From Chloroflexota bacterium (GTDB lineage Bacteria > Chloroflexota > UBA11872 > VXOZ01): a stretch of DNA of 64,000 nt. The DNA is taken from the NCBI GenBank assembly GCA_965221905.1, contig OZ244922.1, positions 3,040,001-3,104,000 of the forward strand, given 5' to 3'. The translations under genes and the position numbers were made by a program. Shown in pieces: positions 39,828 through 49,319 of the stretch. Positions within the stretch are counted from its first letter, which is position 1; every line of letters begins with the position of its first letter. The notes under the pieces were generated by a model. It saw only the letters and a list, made by a program, of their open reading frames with translations, did not search any database and was not told the DNA's origin.

Positions 39828-40589
39828 GTGTTGCTCGTTTTCAATGTCTGGCGCAGAGCGCTTGGCATGCATTACTATGACTTCTTCACCATCATCAGAG
39901 GCAACATTCTCTGGGCGCTGCTCTGTTTGCCATACGCGCTCTATACCTACGTTGCCCTTGTGCCGATTATTACGGACTCCGCTGAGACTGCGCGGGACAC
40001 GTCACCGATCTTCCTGGGTATCTCCTATTTGATCGCCTCGCTCGTACTGCTTGCACTCGCCGGACCGGCCACTGCGGCCCTCTATGATTACGCCGCTAGG
40101 TCACTCGCCAGCGAGGCCGTGGACATGCGGACGTACGTGCAGAGCCTCCGCACGCACTTCATCAAAGGGTACCTGCTCGCAGCGCTCGACCTCTTGATCC
40201 TCGCTGCGCTCGTGCTCAACACCTGGTTCTATCTGACGGCGGACATTCCCCAGCTCATGCGCGCACTTAGCATAATCTTCTTCTGGGGCATTGTGTTCTG
40301 GGTCGCAATTCAACCGTATCTCTTCTCCGTAATGATTAGGCTCGACACCTCCGTGCTGCAGACGTTTCGCAACGCCGTCTTGTTGGCGCTCGACAATCTC
40401 GGCGTTACTATCGGCCTTATCGGCGTGCAACTCGTGATGCTTTTCTTCTTCGTCCCGCTCTTCGCCATTGCGTATCCGGTTTTGGGCGGCTCTATCTTTG
40501 CCCATACCCACGTGGGGGTGCTGAACGAGCTCCTTGACCAATACGAGGAAAAGCGCGGCGGCGCAAATCCAGTGCAAAGAGACTCTTGA
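39828..40589 (+). CDS. YesL/DUF624-like membrane protein
   Basis: GNILW...GPATAALY pattern with multiple TMs; adjacent to a sugar ABC ATPase. Confidence 0.65.
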   Translation: MLLVFNVWRRALGMHYYDFFTIIRGNILWALLCLPYALYTYVALVPIITDSAETARDTSPIFLGISYLIASLVLLALAGPATAALYDYAARSLASEAVDMRTYVQSLRTHFIKGYLLAALDLLILAALVLNTWFYLTADIPQLMRALSIIFFWGIVFWVAIQPYLFSVMIRLDTSVLQTFRNAVLLALDNLGVTIGLIGVQLVMLFFFVPLFAIAYPVLGGSIFAHTHVGVLNELLDQYEEKRGGANPVQRDS

Positions 40590-40599
40590 GGAGGAACGG

Positions 40600-41772
40600 A
40601 TGGCAAACCTCACTCTTGAAGGAGCGACCAAATCGTACAAGAGGCCAAAACCTCAATCTTGGAGGAACATATTCTCGCGAATCCGCGGTGGAGAAGCGTC
40701 CGACGTAGCGGTCGCTGACACTGCTGATACTGAAGAAGACCTGATCTACGCACTCAACGGGCTCGATCTCCAAATCGATGACGGAGAGTCGGTGAGTGTG
40801 CTGGGACCGTCGGGCTGCGGCAAGACTGCTCTGCTACGAATCCTGGCCGGTCTGGAATACTTGGATGGGGGCAAGGTCTTCTTCGATGGGGAAGATATGA
40901 CGACTGTGAGCCCCCAAGACCGCAATGTCGCCATGGTTTTCCAGGACTACGCCCTATACCCCCATTGGGCCGCGCAGGATAACCTGGGATTCTTCTATAA
41001 AACACACCAACGCAAGGACGAGATTCCCGAGCGTGTGCGCTTGACCGCACGGGTCATGGGGCTTGGATTTGAAACGCTCCTCAGCCAGAAGCCGCCCAAA
41101 CTCTCCGGCGGCCAACAGCAGCGTGTGGCTATCGCGCGCGCGATCATTCGCGATCCGCGTGCATTCCTTTTCGATGAACCGCTTTCGAACCTGGACGCAA
41201 CAGTACGCGCGCGTACCCGCGTCGAGATCAAGCGTCTCATCCAGCGATTCGGCATTACCTCGGTCTATGTGACCCACGATCAGGCCGAAGCCTTTACCAT
41301 GGGCGACCGCATCGCCGTGATGCATAAAGGCCGGATTTTGCAGGTAGATAGTCGCAGCCAACTCATCGAACGTCCGCTCAGCCTCTTCGTCGCCGACTTC
41401 ATCACAGTGCCGTCCATGAACTTGCTGCCCGGCGTCGTGTACAGAGAGTACGTGGATACACACGACCGCAAGGTGATACCGCCGCCAATTGTGCTGCATC
41501 AGCATCAGGCCGAGAGAGTAACTATTGGCATTCGCCCTATGGACGTGGTGCTGCGCCCCGAGAACGAAGAGGACACGATTCCCGCCAAGATCGAGACTGT
41601 GGAACCGCTGATGAGCGACCGCGCGGTGCTACTTACGGTGCGCGTTGGGCGCTACACCTACCGTATCCAGCGCCCGCAGACCGAGCATCACGAGCCCGAC
41701 TCGCTCATCTTCATGGAGATCCCCGCCCACTGCCAGCACGTCTTCGATAGCCAGGGACGACGGGTGAATTAG
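40600..41772 (+). CDS. sugar ABC transporter ATP-binding protein (MalK-like)
   Basis: GPSGCGKT, VFQDYALYPH, LSGGQQQR, DEPLSNLD and YVTHDQ. Confidence 0.92.
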   Translation: MANLTLEGATKSYKRPKPQSWRNIFSRIRGGEASDVAVADTADTEEDLIYALNGLDLQIDDGESVSVLGPSGCGKTALLRILAGLEYLDGGKVFFDGEDMTTVSPQDRNVAMVFQDYALYPHWAAQDNLGFFYKTHQRKDEIPERVRLTARVMGLGFETLLSQKPPKLSGGQQQRVAIARAIIRDPRAFLFDEPLSNLDATVRARTRVEIKRLIQRFGITSVYVTHDQAEAFTMGDRIAVMHKGRILQVDSRSQLIERPLSLFVADFITVPSMNLLPGVVYREYVDTHDRKVIPPPIVLHQHQAERVTIGIRPMDVVLRPENEEDTIPAKIETVEPLMSDRAVLLTVRVGRYTYRIQRPQTEHHEPDSLIFMEIPAHCQHVFDSQGRRVN

Positions 41773-43298: not shown

Positions 43299-43326
43299 TT
43301 GACAAACTGAAATGCTGTGCAATACT
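43299..43326 (+). promoter_or_regulatory. candidate sigma70 promoter for the mauE-mauD-peptide cassette
   Basis: TTGACA (43299-304), 16 nt, TG-c-AATACT. Confidence 0.4.
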
Positions 43327-43413
43327 AAAGGCAATGACACGGAGTACGGGTTGGGTAAGGGTAAGTGAAGGTGCTCTCGGAAGAGCCTTCACAGTGAGGT
43401 GGAGGGTAGCCCA

Positions 43414-43957
43414 GTGCTTGAAAATAGCGTTCTTTTCCTCCAACTGCTGGTAGGCGGCGTTTTTCTCCTGGCTGCCGCCGCCAAGTTGCTGCACTTGTCC
43501 GAGTTCAAAGCGGCGGTGCGGGGATTTGGTCTCGTGCCGGCGCCCGCGCTCCAGCCGGTGAGTGGCGCAATCCCTCTGTTTAGAACTCCTCTGTGGCACA
43601 TTGCTCATCACGGGCATTGCCGTGGCATGGGCCGTGTGGTTGTCCATCGGCTTGGTAACCGTCTTCATCGTCGCTTCCTCCGTTGCCTTGGCTCAGGGCC
43701 GGGGCGGGATCGACTGCTACTGCTTTGGCGCGGGCGGCCAACCGCTGGGCACGGCCACCATCATCAAGCAGGTCATTATCCTCGCATTGCTCACACTCCT
43801 GGCGCCCACTGCCGGTTCCACCTGGTTCCTGGATAGCGGATCTACCGCCAACGTAAGCGGCGCGCTCGGGGCCGTCGTGTTTGTAATCGGCGCTTGGGCT
43901 ATTGCCTTTGTGGCCGCTGAACTGCTGCGGCTGCGCACTATTTCACAATCAAACTGA
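43414..43957 (+). pseudogene. mauE: MauE/DoxX family membrane protein, split by a +1 frameshift at ~43580
   Basis: Frame A (VFLLAAAAKL...F...V.GF.L.P...AIPL) continues in the +1 frame as LELLCGTLL...IDCYCFG (MauE has CGCFG); the joined product is ~180 aa. Confidence 0.8.
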
Positions 43958-43992
43958 GGGAGAGAAACGCGCCCTGAGATGGCGAAACGATC

Positions 43993-44020
43993 CGTCATTC
44001 CGACGCAAGCCGGAATCCAG
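43993..44020 (+). repeat. CGTC-type REP
   Basis: CGTCATTCCGACGCAAGCCGGAATCCAG; same family as 27667, 49381 and 51484. Confidence 0.75.
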
Positions 44021-44086
44021 AGAAACCGGTAGCGTAGGTTTGCAACCTGCGCGCGGTCTCCGGTGAGCGTAGGAGGCACAAGAGGC

Positions 44087-44659
44087 ATGGAAGGCATCTG
44101 GCTGGCATCGTACCTGTTGCAATGGGTCCTCATTGGGCTGCTCGCCTTCGTCGTCATCGGCCTCATGCGGCAGATCGGGGAGTTGCGCCTGCGCGTGGGG
44201 GAGGAGCGTGAGAACGGTATCGCGGTCGGTGACAAAGCGCCGCTCTTCCAGGGAGAGGGTCTCAATGGGGCGGTTGACTTGGAGACCATGGCTGGCGAAC
44301 GGCTGCTGGTGCTCTTCGTCCATCCCACCTGCCCGCCCTGCAAGGAACTCTTCAAAAGCCTCAACGGAGAGCCGGAGCACATAGAACAACAAGGCGTGAG
44401 GATGGTGCTCGTAAGCGGCGGCAGCCGTGAGCAGAACCGGGAGATGATTGCAGAATTCAAGCTCTCGTGTCCGCTGGTGATCCAGCAGGAGCATGAGATA
44501 GCCGACCTGTACGGCAGTAGTTGGACGCCGTACGGCTTCGTGGTCGATGCCGATGGCAAAGTCTCTGGAAAGGGGGTGGTAAACGATGTGCATGTGCTAG
44601 GCGAGCTGCTCGCTACTGATGTGACGACCGGCAGCTTGCCAAAGAATGAGAGCGTGTGA
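44087..44659 (+). CDS. mauD: MauD-like membrane-anchored thioredoxin/redoxin
   Basis: LQWVLI...LMRQIGEL N-terminal anchor, G..VGDKAP.F, CPPC, TPYGFVVD..G.V..KG.VN as in MauD. Confidence 0.8.
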   Translation: MEGIWLASYLLQWVLIGLLAFVVIGLMRQIGELRLRVGEERENGIAVGDKAPLFQGEGLNGAVDLETMAGERLLVLFVHPTCPPCKELFKSLNGEPEHIEQQGVRMVLVSGGSREQNREMIAEFKLSCPLVIQQEHEIADLYGSSWTPYGFVVDADGKVSGKGVVNDVHVLGELLATDVTTGSLPKNESV

Positions 44660-44762
44660 CATCCGCGCACAGAGCGTGGAGCCCGAACACCAAGTGTAAA
44701 GATGTCCCACGCGATAGTCGCATCACAGACGCAATGCATGCAAAGCATGGGAGGTAAAACCC

Positions 44763-45107
44763 ATGGACAAGCTTATTGCGAACGCGAGTGTTGGCCTAGC
44801 AAGAGCCAGCATGAACCGGCGTGGTTTTTTGGGCAGGCTGGCCCGAGCAACAGGTGGCGCTGCCGTTCTTACCGGTCTCGCTGCCGTAACGGTGTCTGCC
44901 AGCAGTCACTGTTGGGGGCCTTACTTCTGCGAGACGCATTCCGACAATTACTGTGGGGCGTGTGGCGAGAATTGCTCCCCTAGCAGCAGGCCGTATGTCC
45001 GGAGGCACCACGGCGTACATTGTCTCTCGGGAGAGAGGTGCCCATCATGGACCTCTTACGAGGGCTGTGGCTGCACTATTCCCAACCATCCTTGCCCTGG
45101 TGAATAG
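44763..45107 (+). CDS. Tat-exported small Cys/His-rich protein (114 aa precursor)
   Basis: GGAGGT SD; NRRGFLG Tat motif, hydrophobic region, VSA cleavage site; mature ~68 aa with 10 Cys, 6 His and 2 Trp. Confidence 0.85.
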   Translation: MDKLIANASVGLARASMNRRGFLGRLARATGGAAVLTGLAAVTVSASSHCWGPYFCETHSDNYCGACGENCSPSSRPYVRRHHGVHCLSGERCPSWTSYEGCGCTIPNHPCPGE

Positions 45108-45267: not shown

Positions 45268-46515
45268 ATGCTTTCACGCCGAACGTTGATTGTAGGAACA
45301 GCGGCAATAACGGCGGGGTGTGGCTTTCTCAAGTCTCCGCTTACAGCGCCGGGGTCACCACAGCCCACTGCATTGAACTGGGTGTCGGGCGCGCATCTCG
45401 GTCTCAGTGACAGACTTGGAACATTACGCCCTAAGGAGATACTCCAACAGTCTATAACTGCCCTACAAGATGACGAAGAAAATCCGCATGGCCCCAAACG
45501 CGGGCGATACGAATTAACCCTGCGTTACGTAGAGTATTCAGCGATCCCGAACGACTATCCGGCGTGGCTCAATGAGATCGAAGCCGACCTTGTCACCGTC
45601 CATGCCGGAAACGCGAAGGCGCTGGCGGAAAGCGGCCTCTGGCTGCCCTTGGACCAGTTCCTAGGCGCGGCTGACCCGGAGCTTGAGGCGGCATTCTTTC
45701 CAGGCGCGGTCGAGCAGTTCCGGCACGGGGCGCTCTACGCTCTGCCGGTGGATGCCCGTCCGCTGATGCTCTACTACGACGCTGAGCACTTTGCTCGGGA
45801 GCAAGTCCCTCCTCCGACTGACGGTAGCTGGAACTGGGACGACTTAGTAGAGAATGCAGTGAAGTTGACAAGGCGACGGGAGGACGGGACCCCGGCCCGC
45901 TGGGGCTTAGGTGCACACAGCAATCAAGTCTGGTGGGCGCTGTGGCAAAACCAGGCGGAGGCGGTAGATCCGGACACCTTGCAGTGCCGGTTGCAGGAAC
46001 CGGAGGCGATTGAAGCCTTGCAGTTCATTCACGGGTTGATACACTCGCACCGCGTCTCGCCGCCAAAGGTGAATTGGGCGTCGCCGCCGGCAATGGTATA
46101 TGGGGTACCCCCGGCGCGCCCAAATTACGGCGACTATCGGTTGGCGGCGCTGCCTCGCGGCAAGGTGCAGGCTGTGCCCGTGTTCGGCGACATGGGAATT
46201 GCGATTGCCGCCCGGACGGAGAATGCGGAAACGGCGTACACGGCGCTAAAAGGACTGGTGCACGCCCTGCAACCCCGCGTGGGCGTGCCAGCAGAGAGGG
46301 AGGCAGTGGCGCGGCTTGGGGAATATCGGACCGACCTCCGACCCGAAGAGATCGCGGCGCTCCAGCGTTCAATGGAACATGGGCGCGGCATGCCGCAGAA
46401 TGTGCCGGCGTTGTTCGCCATGCAAAGTGTCGTCGAGGGTCTCGTGCGCGGTGACGACGTGGCAACCGTGGTCAACGAGGCCTGTTCCGTTGTTCGTGAG
46501 TACCAGCAGGCCTAA
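45268..46515 (+). CDS. extracellular solute-binding lipoprotein (Tat), paralogue 1
   Basis: MLSRRTL...TAGC; PLDQF, LYALP, WNWDDL..A.KLT. Confidence 0.8.
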   Translation: MLSRRTLIVGTAAITAGCGFLKSPLTAPGSPQPTALNWVSGAHLGLSDRLGTLRPKEILQQSITALQDDEENPHGPKRGRYELTLRYVEYSAIPNDYPAWLNEIEADLVTVHAGNAKALAESGLWLPLDQFLGAADPELEAAFFPGAVEQFRHGALYALPVDARPLMLYYDAEHFAREQVPPPTDGSWNWDDLVENAVKLTRRREDGTPARWGLGAHSNQVWWALWQNQAEAVDPDTLQCRLQEPEAIEALQFIHGLIHSHRVSPPKVNWASPPAMVYGVPPARPNYGDYRLAALPRGKVQAVPVFGDMGIAIAARTENAETAYTALKGLVHALQPRVGVPAEREAVARLGEYRTDLRPEEIAALQRSMEHGRGMPQNVPALFAMQSVVEGLVRGDDVATVVNEACSVVREYQQA

Positions 46516-46729: not shown

Positions 46730-47985
46730 ATGCTTTCACGCCGAGCGTTGACAGTCAGCGCGGCAGCCCTATGTGCCGTTGGCTGCGGTCAGCTTGAGTC
46801 GCTAGTGTCCGGACCGGTCACGCTCCACGAGACTGAGCTCGTGTGGGTCTGGAGGCCATTCCTCGGCATTGGCAATCAGCAGCAAATAGTCGACGCCCTA
46901 AATGAAGACCCAGCGAATCCGCTTGGCCCGCCGGGCGGGCGTTACCGTCTCCAAGTTCGCGCTATACAGCAGGCGCCCCGCTGGGACGACGTGGATGCAT
47001 GGCACGAGCTCAAGGCGGACCTGCTCACAGTGTCCGTGGAGGAGGCAAGGTTACTGGGGAAATGGGGGTGTTGCATGCTCTGGATCGGTTCAGCGACGCC
47101 AATGAAAGTGCGCTCAACGCGGTGTTCTTTCCGGGGGTACTGAATCAGTTTCGGGCGCAAGGGGCGCTCTATGCGCTGCCGGTTAGCGCCTTGCCCGTGA
47201 TGGTCTATTACGACAGAGTGTATTTCGCACAGCGGGGAGTGCCGCCGGTTGACAGCAGTTGGGGCTAGGACGAACTGGCAGAAAATGCGGCGAAGCTAAC
47301 TAATCGCGGGCAAGACGGCGTAGTGCGGCGTTGGGGATTGCGGGCGCATAGTAAGCTCTGGTGGGCGCTGTGGCAAAACGATGCGGACGTAGCGGACCCG
47401 GCAGCGTTGCAGTGTCGTTTGCAGGAACCGGCCGCAATCGAAGCGCTGCAATTTGTGTGGAAACTCCTGCACACCTTGCAGGTGTCGCCACTTGCTCTCG
47501 GCATGGATTTGATGAAGGTGACCCCGCCACCGGCTATGGTCTACAATAACCCGCCGCTGCGCCCGAGTTTTGGCTCGTACGGTTTGGCTCAGATTCCCCA
47601 AGGCAAGACGCAGGCCGTGCCGGTGAGGGCAGGCGTTGGGCTTGCTATCGCCGCGGGAACACAAAGTCCTGAGACGGCCTATACGGCCCTCCAGGGTCTG
47701 GTGCACGCCATGCAGCGGCATGCCACCGTGCCCGCAACCAGGGACGGAATCGAACGGCTCGGAGAATTTCAGCCCGGCATCCGCTCCGACGAAATCCAGG
47801 CAATTCAGCGTTCCATGGCGGCTGAACGGGAGATGCCGCGACTGCCGCAAGGCAAGCCGGAGTTGTACGCCATGAGTGCGATAGCAGAGGGTCTGGTACG
47901 GGGCGAAGACGTTTCAACCGTGGTCAACCAGGCCTGTTCCGTTTTGCGGGAGTACCAGCAAACAGGTGGTCCATCGGGTGGGTGA
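46730..47985 (+). pseudogene. solute-binding lipoprotein paralogue 2, pseudogene
   Basis: One G missing in a G-run at ~47056-59 and TGG>TAG at 47266-68 (paralogues have W here); the three pieces align to the neighbouring SBPs. Confidence 0.85.
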
Positions 47986-49319
47986 CTATGGAACTTCGCC
48001 GGAGAATCAGGCTAACACGCCGAACGCTGATAGCAAGCACAGCGGTGCTTGCGGCCGGGTGTGGCGGGCTGGATATTCCATTTCCGGTGCTGGGCGCTCC
48101 GAAGATTACCCCATTGACCTGGGTTTCGCACATAATAACCGGTCTCGTTCCTGGGCACCTTGTGGCGTCGCCTGAGGAAAAACTCCGGCGGATAGAGCGA
48201 GAACTGGCGGAAGACAGTGACAGCGCCTTCGGTCCCACGCGCGGGCGCTACAGCCTGACGCTGCAATACTTTGAGCGCTACGCGGGCCCCTACTCGGATC
48301 GCGATGCTGAGGAGTACCTCAAGCCGGAGTACTTGGCGTCGTGGCTAATGGAAATTGGCGCGGACCTCGTAACCGTCTGGCCTCAGGAGGCGCGCGCATT
48401 AGGGGAGCGGGGCATATTGCTGCCTCTGGACCGGTTCAGCGGCGATGGGTCTGGGCTCAGCGGCGAATACTATTCGTCTGTGCTCGACAATTATCGAGAG
48501 AAGGGCGCGCTCTACGCGCTGCCGGTAGGCGCGGACCCGCTGATGCTCTCTTACGATGCGGACTACTTTGCAAGCATGGGGCTGGCGCCGCCAAACTCTA
48601 CGTGGGACTGGGATATCCTGGTGGAGAACGCCCTGAAGCTGACGCAGCGGGAGGAGGACGGCACGGTATCGCGCTGGGGGTTGATAGCGCACAATAGTTC
48701 TATTTGGTGGGCTTTGTGGCAAAATGAAGCGGAGCTAGCCGACGCGCTCACGGCGCAATGCCGCTTGCAGGAACCGGCCGCCGTCAAAGCGCTAGAGTAC
48801 ATTTGGGATTTGATGCACACCCATGGCGTCTCGCCCGCGGCCGCCGGAAATGATCTGGATAGGTTTGTCTATGGTGAAGTGGACTCCCCGCCGGCTATGA
48901 TATATTTCCCTGTGCTCTACCTCTCGGGGGGCGCCAAATATCGTAGAGCAGAGCTGCCCCGGGGCAAGGTGCCGAGCACGCAGGTCAATCCCTACCCGGG
49001 GATTGCGATTGCCGCGCGAACCGCCAATCCCGAGGCAGCCTACACCGCGCTCAGGGGACTCGTGAAAACTATGCAACCGCATGTCAGAGTGCCTACCGAG
49101 CGAGAGGCGGTGGCGCGTCTTGGGGAATTCCGGTGGGACCTCCAACCGGAGGAAGTTATCGCGATACAACAGTCTATGGAATACGGACGCGTGAGGCCGC
49201 AGGATGAGGCCCAAGTTCGCGCCATGTTCCGCTTGGTAGAGGCGCTCGCACGCGGCGACGACGTGACCTCCGCGGTCAATCAAGGCTGCTCAGTCCTCTA
49301 CGAGAACCAGCGGACGTGA
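47982..49319 (+). CDS. extracellular solute-binding lipoprotein (Tat), paralogue 3
   Basis: TRRTL...LAAGC; WWALWQN and CRLQEP shared with paralogues 1 and 2. The start may be ATG 47988. Confidence 0.8.
   Translation: MTMELRRRIRLTRRTLIASTAVLAAGCGGLDIPFPVLGAPKITPLTWVSHIITGLVPGHLVASPEEKLRRIERELAEDSDSAFGPTRGRYSLTLQYFERYAGPYSDRDAEEYLKPEYLASWLMEIGADLVTVWPQEARALGERGILLPLDRFSGDGSGLSGEYYSSVLDNYREKGALYALPVGADPLMLSYDADYFASMGLAPPNSTWDWDILVENALKLTQREEDGTVSRWGLIAHNSSIWWALWQNEAELADALTAQCRLQEPAAVKALEYIWDLMHTHGVSPAAAGNDLDRFVYGEVDSPPAMIYFPVLYLSGGAKYRRAELPRGKVPSTQVNPYPGIAIAARTANPEAAYTALRGLVKTMQPHVRVPTEREAVARLGEFRWDLQPEEVIAIQQSMEYGRVRPQDEAQVRAMFRLVEALARGDDVTSAVNQGCSVLYENQRT

Follow-up and report, generated by a model that had tools for sequence, protein, structure and literature searches.

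The stretch considered here (the window) comprises 64,000 nt, positions 3,040,001–3,104,000 of the single-contig, 3.52-Mb genome of a Chloroflexota bacterium, rated 99.64% complete. Within it, three genes of the same orientation on the + strand, spanning 43399/43414–45107, encode a MauE-like membrane protein, a MauD-like thioredoxin-fold protein and a 114-residue precursor (44763–45107). They are followed on the same strand by three genes for solute-binding proteins (SBPs) of the SBP_bac_1 type. An initial annotation had recognized the three co-oriented genes, which are indeed present, and proposed that MauE and MauD have been redeployed for a client other than MauA, which in methylamine dehydrogenase (MADH) forms the small subunit. 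By confining itself to three genes, however, it left out an SBP-type lipoprotein gene that adjoins the precursor downstream in every case studied. We put at about 55% the probability that the 114-residue open reading frame (ORF) encodes a precursor, targeted to the twin-arginine translocation (Tat) pathway, of an acidic mini-protein of ~58–69 residues with four or five disulfides that is partnered with this lipoprotein.

A precursor family with an adjacent lipoprotein gene

The precursor contains Cys at positions 50, 56, 64, 67, 71, 87, 93, 102, 104 and 111, His at 49, 59, 82, 83, 86 and 109, and Trp at 51 and 96; the composition listed earlier proved exact against the translation. Its twin-arginine (RR) motif scores slightly under the cut-off of the TIGR01409 TAT_signal model (Table 1). 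A word-indexed search of 5.8 billion proteins returned 37 homologues, all of them unnamed or 'hypothetical' and, where the source was named, from Chloroflexota. When 1.84 billion cluster representatives were searched exhaustively with HMMER, 12 matches at E ≤ 0.001 were obtained, four of them artefacts. In plasmid and phage collections, tblastn found no match to the precursor. Apparent long members of the family (P0038, P0041 and P0042) were discarded as low-complexity or repeat artefacts, as was P0039, in which a response-regulator fragment is joined to a core, probably through an error in gene calling.

The family alignment revealed a near-invariant leader (consensus MDKLIANASVGLAKAGMNRRGFLGRLARA) followed by a variable Cys-rich core, an arrangement that had been anticipated from the single sequence. 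The leader comprises a near-invariant 18-residue n-region, then RRGFLG and the h-region, with V-S-A in front of the presumed site of cleavage. Since its pooled synonymous divergence is high (pS 0.52, compared with a nonsynonymous pN of 0.155), its conservation reflects selection at the protein level, and gene conversion was ruled out as the cause of the invariance. In the core, Cys residues are conserved at positions 50, 56, 71, 87, 93, 102 and 111 (precursor numbering), and His 49, which adjoins the presumed N-terminus of the mature protein, reaches at least 90% conservation. Downstream of the presumed cleavage site, 52 of 55 unique sequences have 8, 10 or 12 Cys, the three exceptions being truncated or frameshifted. 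A net negative charge is found in 43 of the 55 mature cores, and each core carries 1–10 His, whose number and position differ widely between core types. Of the 10 close pairs listed, 8 have a core ratio of nonsynonymous to synonymous divergence (dN/dS, Nei–Gojobori) of 0.1–0.4, one has 0.99 and for one the ratio is undefined, as expected of a constrained coding gene. Moreover, AlphaFold2, given a 38-row alignment, modeled residues 47–114 with a predicted local distance difference test (pLDDT) score of 87–91, compared with <50 for the leader, and placed strands 55–64, 77–86 and 92–102 in a three-stranded sheet. Thus, the homologues, the dN/dS values and the confident fold establish that the precursor ORF is real, beyond chance.

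Synteny was compared across the window, the two other cassettes of this genome and 14 loci from Chloroflexota metagenome-assembled genome records. In this set, all 22 precursors found by regular expression have, 43–203 bp downstream on the same strand, an SBP ORF no shorter than 380 aa. Three further precursors detected by tblastn (L014 2460, L021 and L033) are also followed by an SBP gene, bringing the count to 25 of 25. The adjacent genes encode proteins of 415–438 aa, all starting with ML[ST]RR...LAAGC, a Tat motif plus a lipobox. On the upstream side, 24 of the 25 precursors directly adjoin a mauD-like gene or at minimum its 3′ end. At four loci (L014, L015, L016 and L022), units made up of the last ~105 nt of mauD, the 5′ region, the precursor and one or more lipoprotein genes stand in tandem and share a sharp junction. 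We consider it somewhat better than an even bet that the constant functional partner of the mini-protein is the downstream SBP_bac_1-type Tat-lipoprotein and not MauE/MauD.

The profile matches of the lipoprotein are sugar-binding proteins (6rjy, 9.9e-19), the nearest solved structures being AraN (6rjy) and a trehalose/maltose-binding protein (1eu8). Like carbohydrate-type ABC solute-binding lipoproteins of the SBP_bac_1 family, it matches PF01547 and carries a Tat signal and a lipobox. Unlike them, it has no permease gene in its cassette, and its predicted ligand is a 68-residue protein, not a sugar. None of the genome's 18 permease-domain matches (BPD_transp_1) falls inside the window, the nearest listed being at 2,891–2,893 kb. 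The ORF lists of five other lipoprotein arrays, inspected by eye and not Pfam-scanned, contained no recognisable permease. Against these 18 matches, the genome has 105 to SBP_bac_1, an extreme excess of binders. The third SBP paralogue of the window falls in a clade that is paired elsewhere with cores of the type 'GSHHC...VVDCYTRE', a core type absent from this genome. The cassette contains only mauE, mauD, precursor and lipoprotein genes; it has no enzymes of the kind that modify ribosomally synthesized and post-translationally modified peptides, and the leader is a Tat signal.

The features of the locus are collected in Table 1. Genes 5′ of mauE are not the same among the three paralogous cassettes of the genome, which delimits the cassette to mauE, mauD, precursor and lipoprotein gene(s). 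In the window, the genes upstream (39828–41772) include one for a DUF624 membrane protein and one for a MalK-type ABC ATPase that stands alone; of the two neighbouring genes scanned, neither encodes a permease. The promoter-like site before mauE is no better than chance, since one was found and 1.0 is expected in shuffled sequences. The mauE–mauD spacer holds two repeats of ~31 nt and ~27 nt with 122 blastn-short matches in the genome. Their per-base genome coverage reaches 71, and their metagenome contig depth is 2e4–3.5e4 compared with ~100 in the flanks; they look like repetitive extragenic palindromic (REP)-type elements. Ahead of every precursor (window 44700–44762; L011–L026) stands a strongly conserved segment in which AGTCGCATCA.AGACGCAATG is followed by a short palindrome and this by GGAGG, the ribosome-binding site (RBS); the segment may be a regulatory RNA or promoter element. 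The defect of the second SBP gene is common to the cassette at 2.711 Mb (L012 3464–4719), where the 137-aa ORF is letter-identical and the next ORF matches. The shared frameshift points to a recent segmental duplication that would have carried the same defect into both arrays.

Table 1. Features of the cassette and its surroundings, in window coordinates
Feature	Position	Strand	Basis and remarks
Promoter-like site upstream of mauE	43299..43326	+	TTGACA, 16 nt, AATACT, TG extension; weak evidence
mauE-like gene (MauE/DoxX, CYC-FG motif), disrupted	43399..43957	+	PF07291 split over two frames
mauE–mauD spacer with two short dispersed REP-like repeats	43958..44086	.	blastn-short and contig depth
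mauD-like gene, membrane-anchored thioredoxin-fold protein, CPPC	44087..44659	+	Pfam/NCBIfam; ORF open from GTG at 44063
Conserved 5′ region with RBS GGAGG before the precursor	44660..44762	+	20 aligned upstream regions
Tat leader of the precursor, residues 1–46	44763..44900	+	Alignment; TAT_signal 16.3 bits (cut-off 16.7); presumed cleavage site
Mature 68-aa core, 10 Cys, plus stop codon	44901..45107	+	Predicted three-stranded sheet
First SBP_bac_1-type Tat-lipoprotein, MLSRRTLI...TAGC lipobox	45268..46515	+	PF01547 54.8 bits (cut-off 26); ORF open from 45220
Second SBP paralogue, frameshifted into 137-aa and 220-aa ORFs	46730..47985	+	ORF comparison
Third SBP paralogue	47982..49319	+	PF01547 38 bits (cut-off 26); tree; paired segment table

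MauE, MauD and the distribution of the cassette

The MauE-like protein has the CYCFG motif and matches PF07291 in two parts, with 30.4 bits (profile 5–55, 43399–43581) and 39.9 bits (profile 54–126, 43562–43957) at a cut-off of 27. Aligned to the copies at L013, L012 and L011, the window mauE has one extra nucleotide near 43575–43582. The gene, counted as one in the initial annotation, is thus frameshifted here, its N-terminal part lying in frame 1 and its C-terminal part (from 43562) in frame 2. The same form occurs with 0 differences in contigs of three public runs (X1 and X2 of study P1, X3 of P2), and a fourth run contains indel variants at 43575–43579. This supports, short of proof, the view that the frameshift is real and not an artefact; one of the matching runs may be the source sample itself. 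Two of the genome's three mauE copies are broken, the one at L011 by an in-frame TAA, and the sole intact copy lies at 2.716 Mb.

The MauD-like protein carries a CPPC motif and matches AhpC-TSA (59.3 bits) and Redoxin (46.5 bits). Its best NCBIfam match is TIGR02661, MauD, at 65.8 bits, under the equivalog cut-off of 188.6, with residues 13–187 aligned to model positions 2–179 of 189. Encoded directly after mauE, the protein fits a thioredoxin fold that is anchored at its N-terminus and bears a CxxC motif, and its best matches on plasmids, at 28–33% identity over 87–95% of the protein, are annotated as MauD. At L020 (4103–5896), a mauD-like gene was matched in two pieces (query 1–114 and 91–190) with ~1.1 kb between them, which resembles the effect of an insertion or a partial duplication. 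The genome also encodes TatC, Lgt and one DsbB, and no VKOR was found in it.

Among 401 sampled genomes of the phylum, the precursor was detected in 7, all of one genus, with 0 of 390 outside that genus. Within the genus it is present in 12 of 17 genomes, in 1–8 copies each. MauE occurs in 10 of the 17, each of the 10 also having the precursor, and the five precursor-less genomes all lack MauE. The lipoprotein subfamily, at E ≤ 1e-60 and with five candidates scored per genome, was found in 9 of 9 sampled genomes of the genus and 0 of 292 others. In-frame stops interrupt 10 of 31 lipoprotein-subfamily matches in five genomes of the genus (G080, G404, G310, G143 and G214), indicating that the lipoprotein family turns over quickly. 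In the genome studied here, further arrays of this subfamily, free of both precursor and mauE/mauD, lie at 943–948 kb, 1096–1103 kb, 1565 kb and 3501 kb; one precursor-free array adjoins a sulfatase-like ORF, and the array at 1096–1103 kb forms an orphan-only clade of its own.

Comparison with the closest relative, L013, suggests a mosaic. From ~44840, at the end of the leader, to ~45500, ~100 codons into the lipoprotein gene, the two loci are 97–100% identical. Outside this segment, identity is 48–78% in the leader and 5′ region, 72–98% in mauD and 80–98% in the rest of the lipoprotein gene. For the same pair, dS is 0.58 in the leader and 0.02 in the core. Judging by the aligned nucleotides, a recombination boundary may lie near the leader/core junction.

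The predicted complex and competing explanations

A complex was modeled from lipoprotein residues 19–415 (22-row alignment) and core residues 47–114 (38-row alignment). The interface score ipSAE was 0.88, 0.86 and 0.85 in three runs, and the best of three controls, none of them a non-cognate paralogue, reached 0.07. In the tool's calibration, the mark was attained in 58 of 80 cases for solved complexes and in 2 of 110 for mismatched pairs, figures that are only approximate here because the alignments were our own. Each model has 109–110 contacts, the partner pLDDT is at least 85, and the runs agree in at least 88% of contacts. On the core, the contacts involve residues 49, 51–52, 61–74, 79, 81, 83, 92, 94–99 and 106–113, that is, the variable loops and the C-terminal tail. 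On the lipoprotein, they are spread along the whole chain (42–55, 90–97, 111–124, 164, 218–220, 270–289, 306–308 and 356–386). Interface columns of the lipoprotein are more variable than the rest (entropy 2.12 versus 1.09 bits; 46 versus 351 columns; Mann–Whitney p 2.6e-13), a contrast taken over all residues irrespective of surface exposure. Moreover, indels in interface segments 90–97 and 375–386 track the core type. The modeling supports, as a prediction and not a measurement, binding of the core to the lipoprotein. The residue ranges, as we read them, would place the interface in the inter-lobe solute cleft.

Several points weigh against the proposed partnership, beginning with the limits just given on the controls, the entropy contrast, the predicted binding and the placement of the interface. 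Co-variation of core type with lipoprotein clade could be mere co-inheritance of neighbouring genes. Positive selection on the core was not detected in the 10 close pairs listed (Nei–Gojobori), and no RNA runs with the locus were listed. This genome has ~24 lipoprotein paralogues in arrays and 3 precursors, and each of the five precursor-less genomes of the genus has 3–11 lipoprotein copies. In a quick maximum-likelihood tree of 51 lipoprotein sequences, precursor-adjacent and orphan copies interleave, with 16 label changes, a number as low being reached in 174–187 of 500 shuffles. A distinct clade of precursor-adjacent lipoproteins was ruled out on this basis, and near-identical orthologues are precursor-adjacent in one genome and orphan in another. 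The interleaving implies that the lipoproteins do not need the mini-protein. The lipoprotein family is therefore independent of it, and the mini-protein/MauE/MauD part is an accessory element. MauE in turn is not obligatory for maturation, since two of three copies are broken here and 2 of the 12 precursor genomes have the precursor–lipoprotein pair without MauE, one of them retaining only a 3′ piece of mauD. The idea that MauE/MauD serve a non-MauA client is supported, among other points by the tie between MauE and the precursor within the genus (10 of 10). With a DsbB also present, MauE/MauD appear helpful to the system yet dispensable.

If the partnership with the lipoprotein did not exist, the mini-protein might be a free secreted bioactive peptide, a defensin/knottin-like antimicrobial or host-interaction effector matured by MauE/MauD, and the lipoprotein gene a mere neighbour. 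The conserved leader with a variable Cys-rich core, the even Cys counts, the occurrence of the precursor in all 10 MauE genomes and the restriction to one genus, patchy even there (12 of 17 genomes), would all suit such a peptide. We nevertheless regard it as unlikely. Adjacency in 25 of 25 cases and joint duplication of the units are hard to square with a chance neighbour, and the complex model passes its controls. The net negative charge of 43 of 55 mature cores disfavours a cationic defensin, and with it the defensin-like peptide offered in the initial annotation. No defensin or knottin fold was matched within the reach of two fold searches: Foldseek with the AlphaFold2 core against PDB gave 0 matches at E ≤ 0.001, and VIA-align in wide mode found 0 chains at Z ≥ 5, the best reaching Z 3.1. 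Laterosporulin3, at VIA Z 2.4, is not a meaningful match, and a search of the ESM Atlas with the mature core returned no usable one.

A partnership of another kind would be a metal relay, in which the Cys/His-rich mini-protein acts as a metallochaperone and passes Cu, Zn or Ni to the adjacent lipoprotein, by analogy with ZinT and ZnuA or Pht proteins and AdcAII. Tat export suits proteins that fold or are loaded before export. The strong conservation of His 49 by the presumed mature N-terminus, the 1–10 His of the cores and the inclusion of residues 49 and 51–52 in the predicted interface fit this idea. The balance of evidence makes it doubtful: even Cys numbers in 52 of 55 cores and a thiol oxidase pair encoded upstream point to disulfides and not thiolate ligands, the solved relatives of the lipoprotein bind sugars and not metals, and the His pattern differs widely between types. 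Equally improbable, in our judgement, is that the window cassette is a pseudogenising copy with no current function. Its mauE and second lipoprotein gene are frameshifted, an in-frame TAA interrupts another of the mauE copies, and in-frame stops occur in 10 of 31 lipoprotein matches of five related genomes. Yet no such defect affects mauD, the precursor or the first lipoprotein gene of the window, and the intact mauE at 2.716 Mb could act in trans. The 97–100% identity to L013 of the core and the first ~100 lipoprotein codons, between flanks of 48–92%, suggests recent exchange or constraint.

The relation to MADH was examined across the whole genome. PF02975 (MauA), PF06433 (MauB) and PF03150 (MauG) had no matches in it, and when eight Paracoccus mau proteins served as tblastn queries (E ≤ 0.01), only MauE and MauD found relatives. 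By these searches (Pfam for MauA, MauB and MauG; tblastn), no relative of MauA, MauB, MauG, MauF, MauJ or amicyanin is present anywhere in the genome. The absence of MADH, noted earlier for the vicinity of the cassette, thus holds genome-wide. Nor does the precursor show a detectable resemblance to MauA. It has no match to PF02975 at E ≤ 1, no MauA chain among PDB profiles to E = 10 and none among the 50 VIA-align matches listed, and hhalign against P. denitrificans MauA aligned 19 columns around RR only, with a probability of 0.9%. Both Trp 51 and Trp 96 lie outside the invariant and ≥90% columns; in the 38 rows, position 51 is W, S, D, G, E or others. The core was accordingly rejected as a MauA homologue, as Pfam, NCBIfam, PDB profiles and hhalign show nothing past the Tat motif, and on this count the initial annotation was right.

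Its statement that the gene order matches was also borne out, with MauE, MauD and then a small protein encoded in 6 of 6 canonical clusters fetched (B-E-D-A). Among these, plasmid 1 of Paracoccus denitrificans PD1222 (NC_008688.1) has the order mauR-F-B-E-D-A-amicyanin-J-G. The claimed match in leader style is unspecific: the n-region scores 9.5 against a MauA-type profile, compared with a null of 7.64 ± 1.69, and 700 of 5000 shuffles reach that score, so that a MauA-like 'address tag' was rejected as not significant. Like mauBEDA, then, the cassette encodes MauE-like and MauD-like proteins, a small Cys-rich Tat-exported protein with a long n-region before RR and a much larger partner. Unlike it, the small protein has no detectable similarity to MauA past RR and no conserved Trp pair, the genome lacks MauB, MauG, MauF, MauJ and amicyanin, and the large partner has the SBP fold and is encoded downstream, whereas the canonical one is a beta-propeller protein encoded upstream. 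A degenerate quinoprotein, in which a light chain of the MauA type would have diverged greatly to give the mini-protein and MauB would be replaced by the SBP-fold lipoprotein in a redox enzyme, has in its favour the gene order, the long n-region and the adjacent large partner with its predicted complex, and is very improbable given the lack of a PF02975 match, the confinement of the hhalign alignment to RR, the non-conserved W51 and W96, the missing MauG, the non-significant n-region similarity and a core too variable for a catalytic subunit.

Comparison with known systems and possible role

That MauE and MauD occur here without MADH is expected and no surprise, because MauA is present in only 10.2% of MauE species, according to a 2026 preprint (bioRxiv 10.64898/2026.03.05.709764). 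The preprint also reports that MauE replaces DsbB in E. coli and uses a CXC motif followed by F-G, and the CYCFG of the window MauE fits its CXC-F-G active-site logo. The resemblance to the generalist MauE described there extends to the thioredoxin-fold partner alongside and the occurrence of MauE without MauA. The differences from that account are that MauE is no housekeeping generalist here: in this genus it never stands apart from the mini-protein cassette (10 of 10 genomes), it has multiple and often disrupted copies, and a DsbB coexists with it.

The partnership of mini-protein and lipoprotein also recalls polymorphic toxin–immunity loci that carry orphan modules, among them CdiA-CT/CdiI and Rhs arrays. 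The likeness is one of architecture and predicted binding. In both, a conserved export part is joined to a variable C-terminal part, and the gene for the cognate binder, here a predicted one, is adjacent; additional modules in tandem retain part of the conserved gene upstream, additional binders stand without partners, and distribution is patchy among close relatives, with mosaic module boundaries. Unlike those loci, the present ones have no known toxic activity or toxin domain, precursors remain complete in the additional modules, the binder, found in every genus genome examined, is an SBP-fold lipoprotein of 430 aa, and export is by Tat.

Gene structure, synteny, distribution and the lack of MADH are shown by the sequence data, and binding, the site of cleavage, the state of the disulfides and the biological role are inferred. 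We envisage the following course of events. Both the mini-protein and the lipoprotein would be exported by Tat, and the leader would be removed after the V-S-A/A-x-A site. The MauD-like CPPC thioredoxin would introduce the disulfides and be re-oxidised by the MauE-like CXC membrane protein, a presumed DsbB analogue, with the genome's own DsbB system as a possible back-up. The mature mini-protein is predicted to dock on the membrane-tethered lipoprotein through its most variable loops (61–74 and 94–99) and tail (106–113), and the docking segments of the lipoprotein are predicted to be its own most variable columns. The outcome would be type-matched ligand/binder pairs that duplicate and recombine as units of mauD 3′ end, leader, core and lipoprotein.

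As to what such pairs do, strain-level competition or protection is the candidate that we favour, at less than even odds; the mini-protein would be a blocker or toxin and the lipoprotein a neutralising binder or target. A tentative second possibility is that the mini-protein serves as a stable, accessory 'small subunit' and in this way caps the binding protein or re-tunes it; a signal with its receptor is a more distant third. In its full form, the proposal is that an ABC-type solute-binding fold has been recruited to bind a family of secreted, disulfide-locked mini-proteins specifically outside the cell, whether as immunity protein, decoy or receptor. It would form a polymorphic, recombining ligand/binder set for strain-level competition or recognition between co-resident members of a single uncultured Chloroflexota genus, with MauE/MauD travelling along as a private oxidative-folding kit. 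We offer this fuller proposal only as a possibility, on balance less likely than not.

Our literature search found no description of a Cys-rich mini-protein paired with a solute-binding lipoprotein. The pairing seems not to have been reported before, and the only genus in which it was found is one of uncultured Chloroflexota. If the complex is true, it would be the first case found of a carbohydrate-type solute-binding lipoprotein with a genetically encoded disulfide-rich mini-protein as its ligand. MauE/MauD, recently proposed as a general disulfide pathway, would then gain a clear non-MauA client with a testable partner, and there would be a lead to why the genus carries so many more SBP_bac_1 than permease-domain matches. 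Moreover, the type-matched recombining modules may represent a new form of strain-level interaction system in uncultured bacteria.

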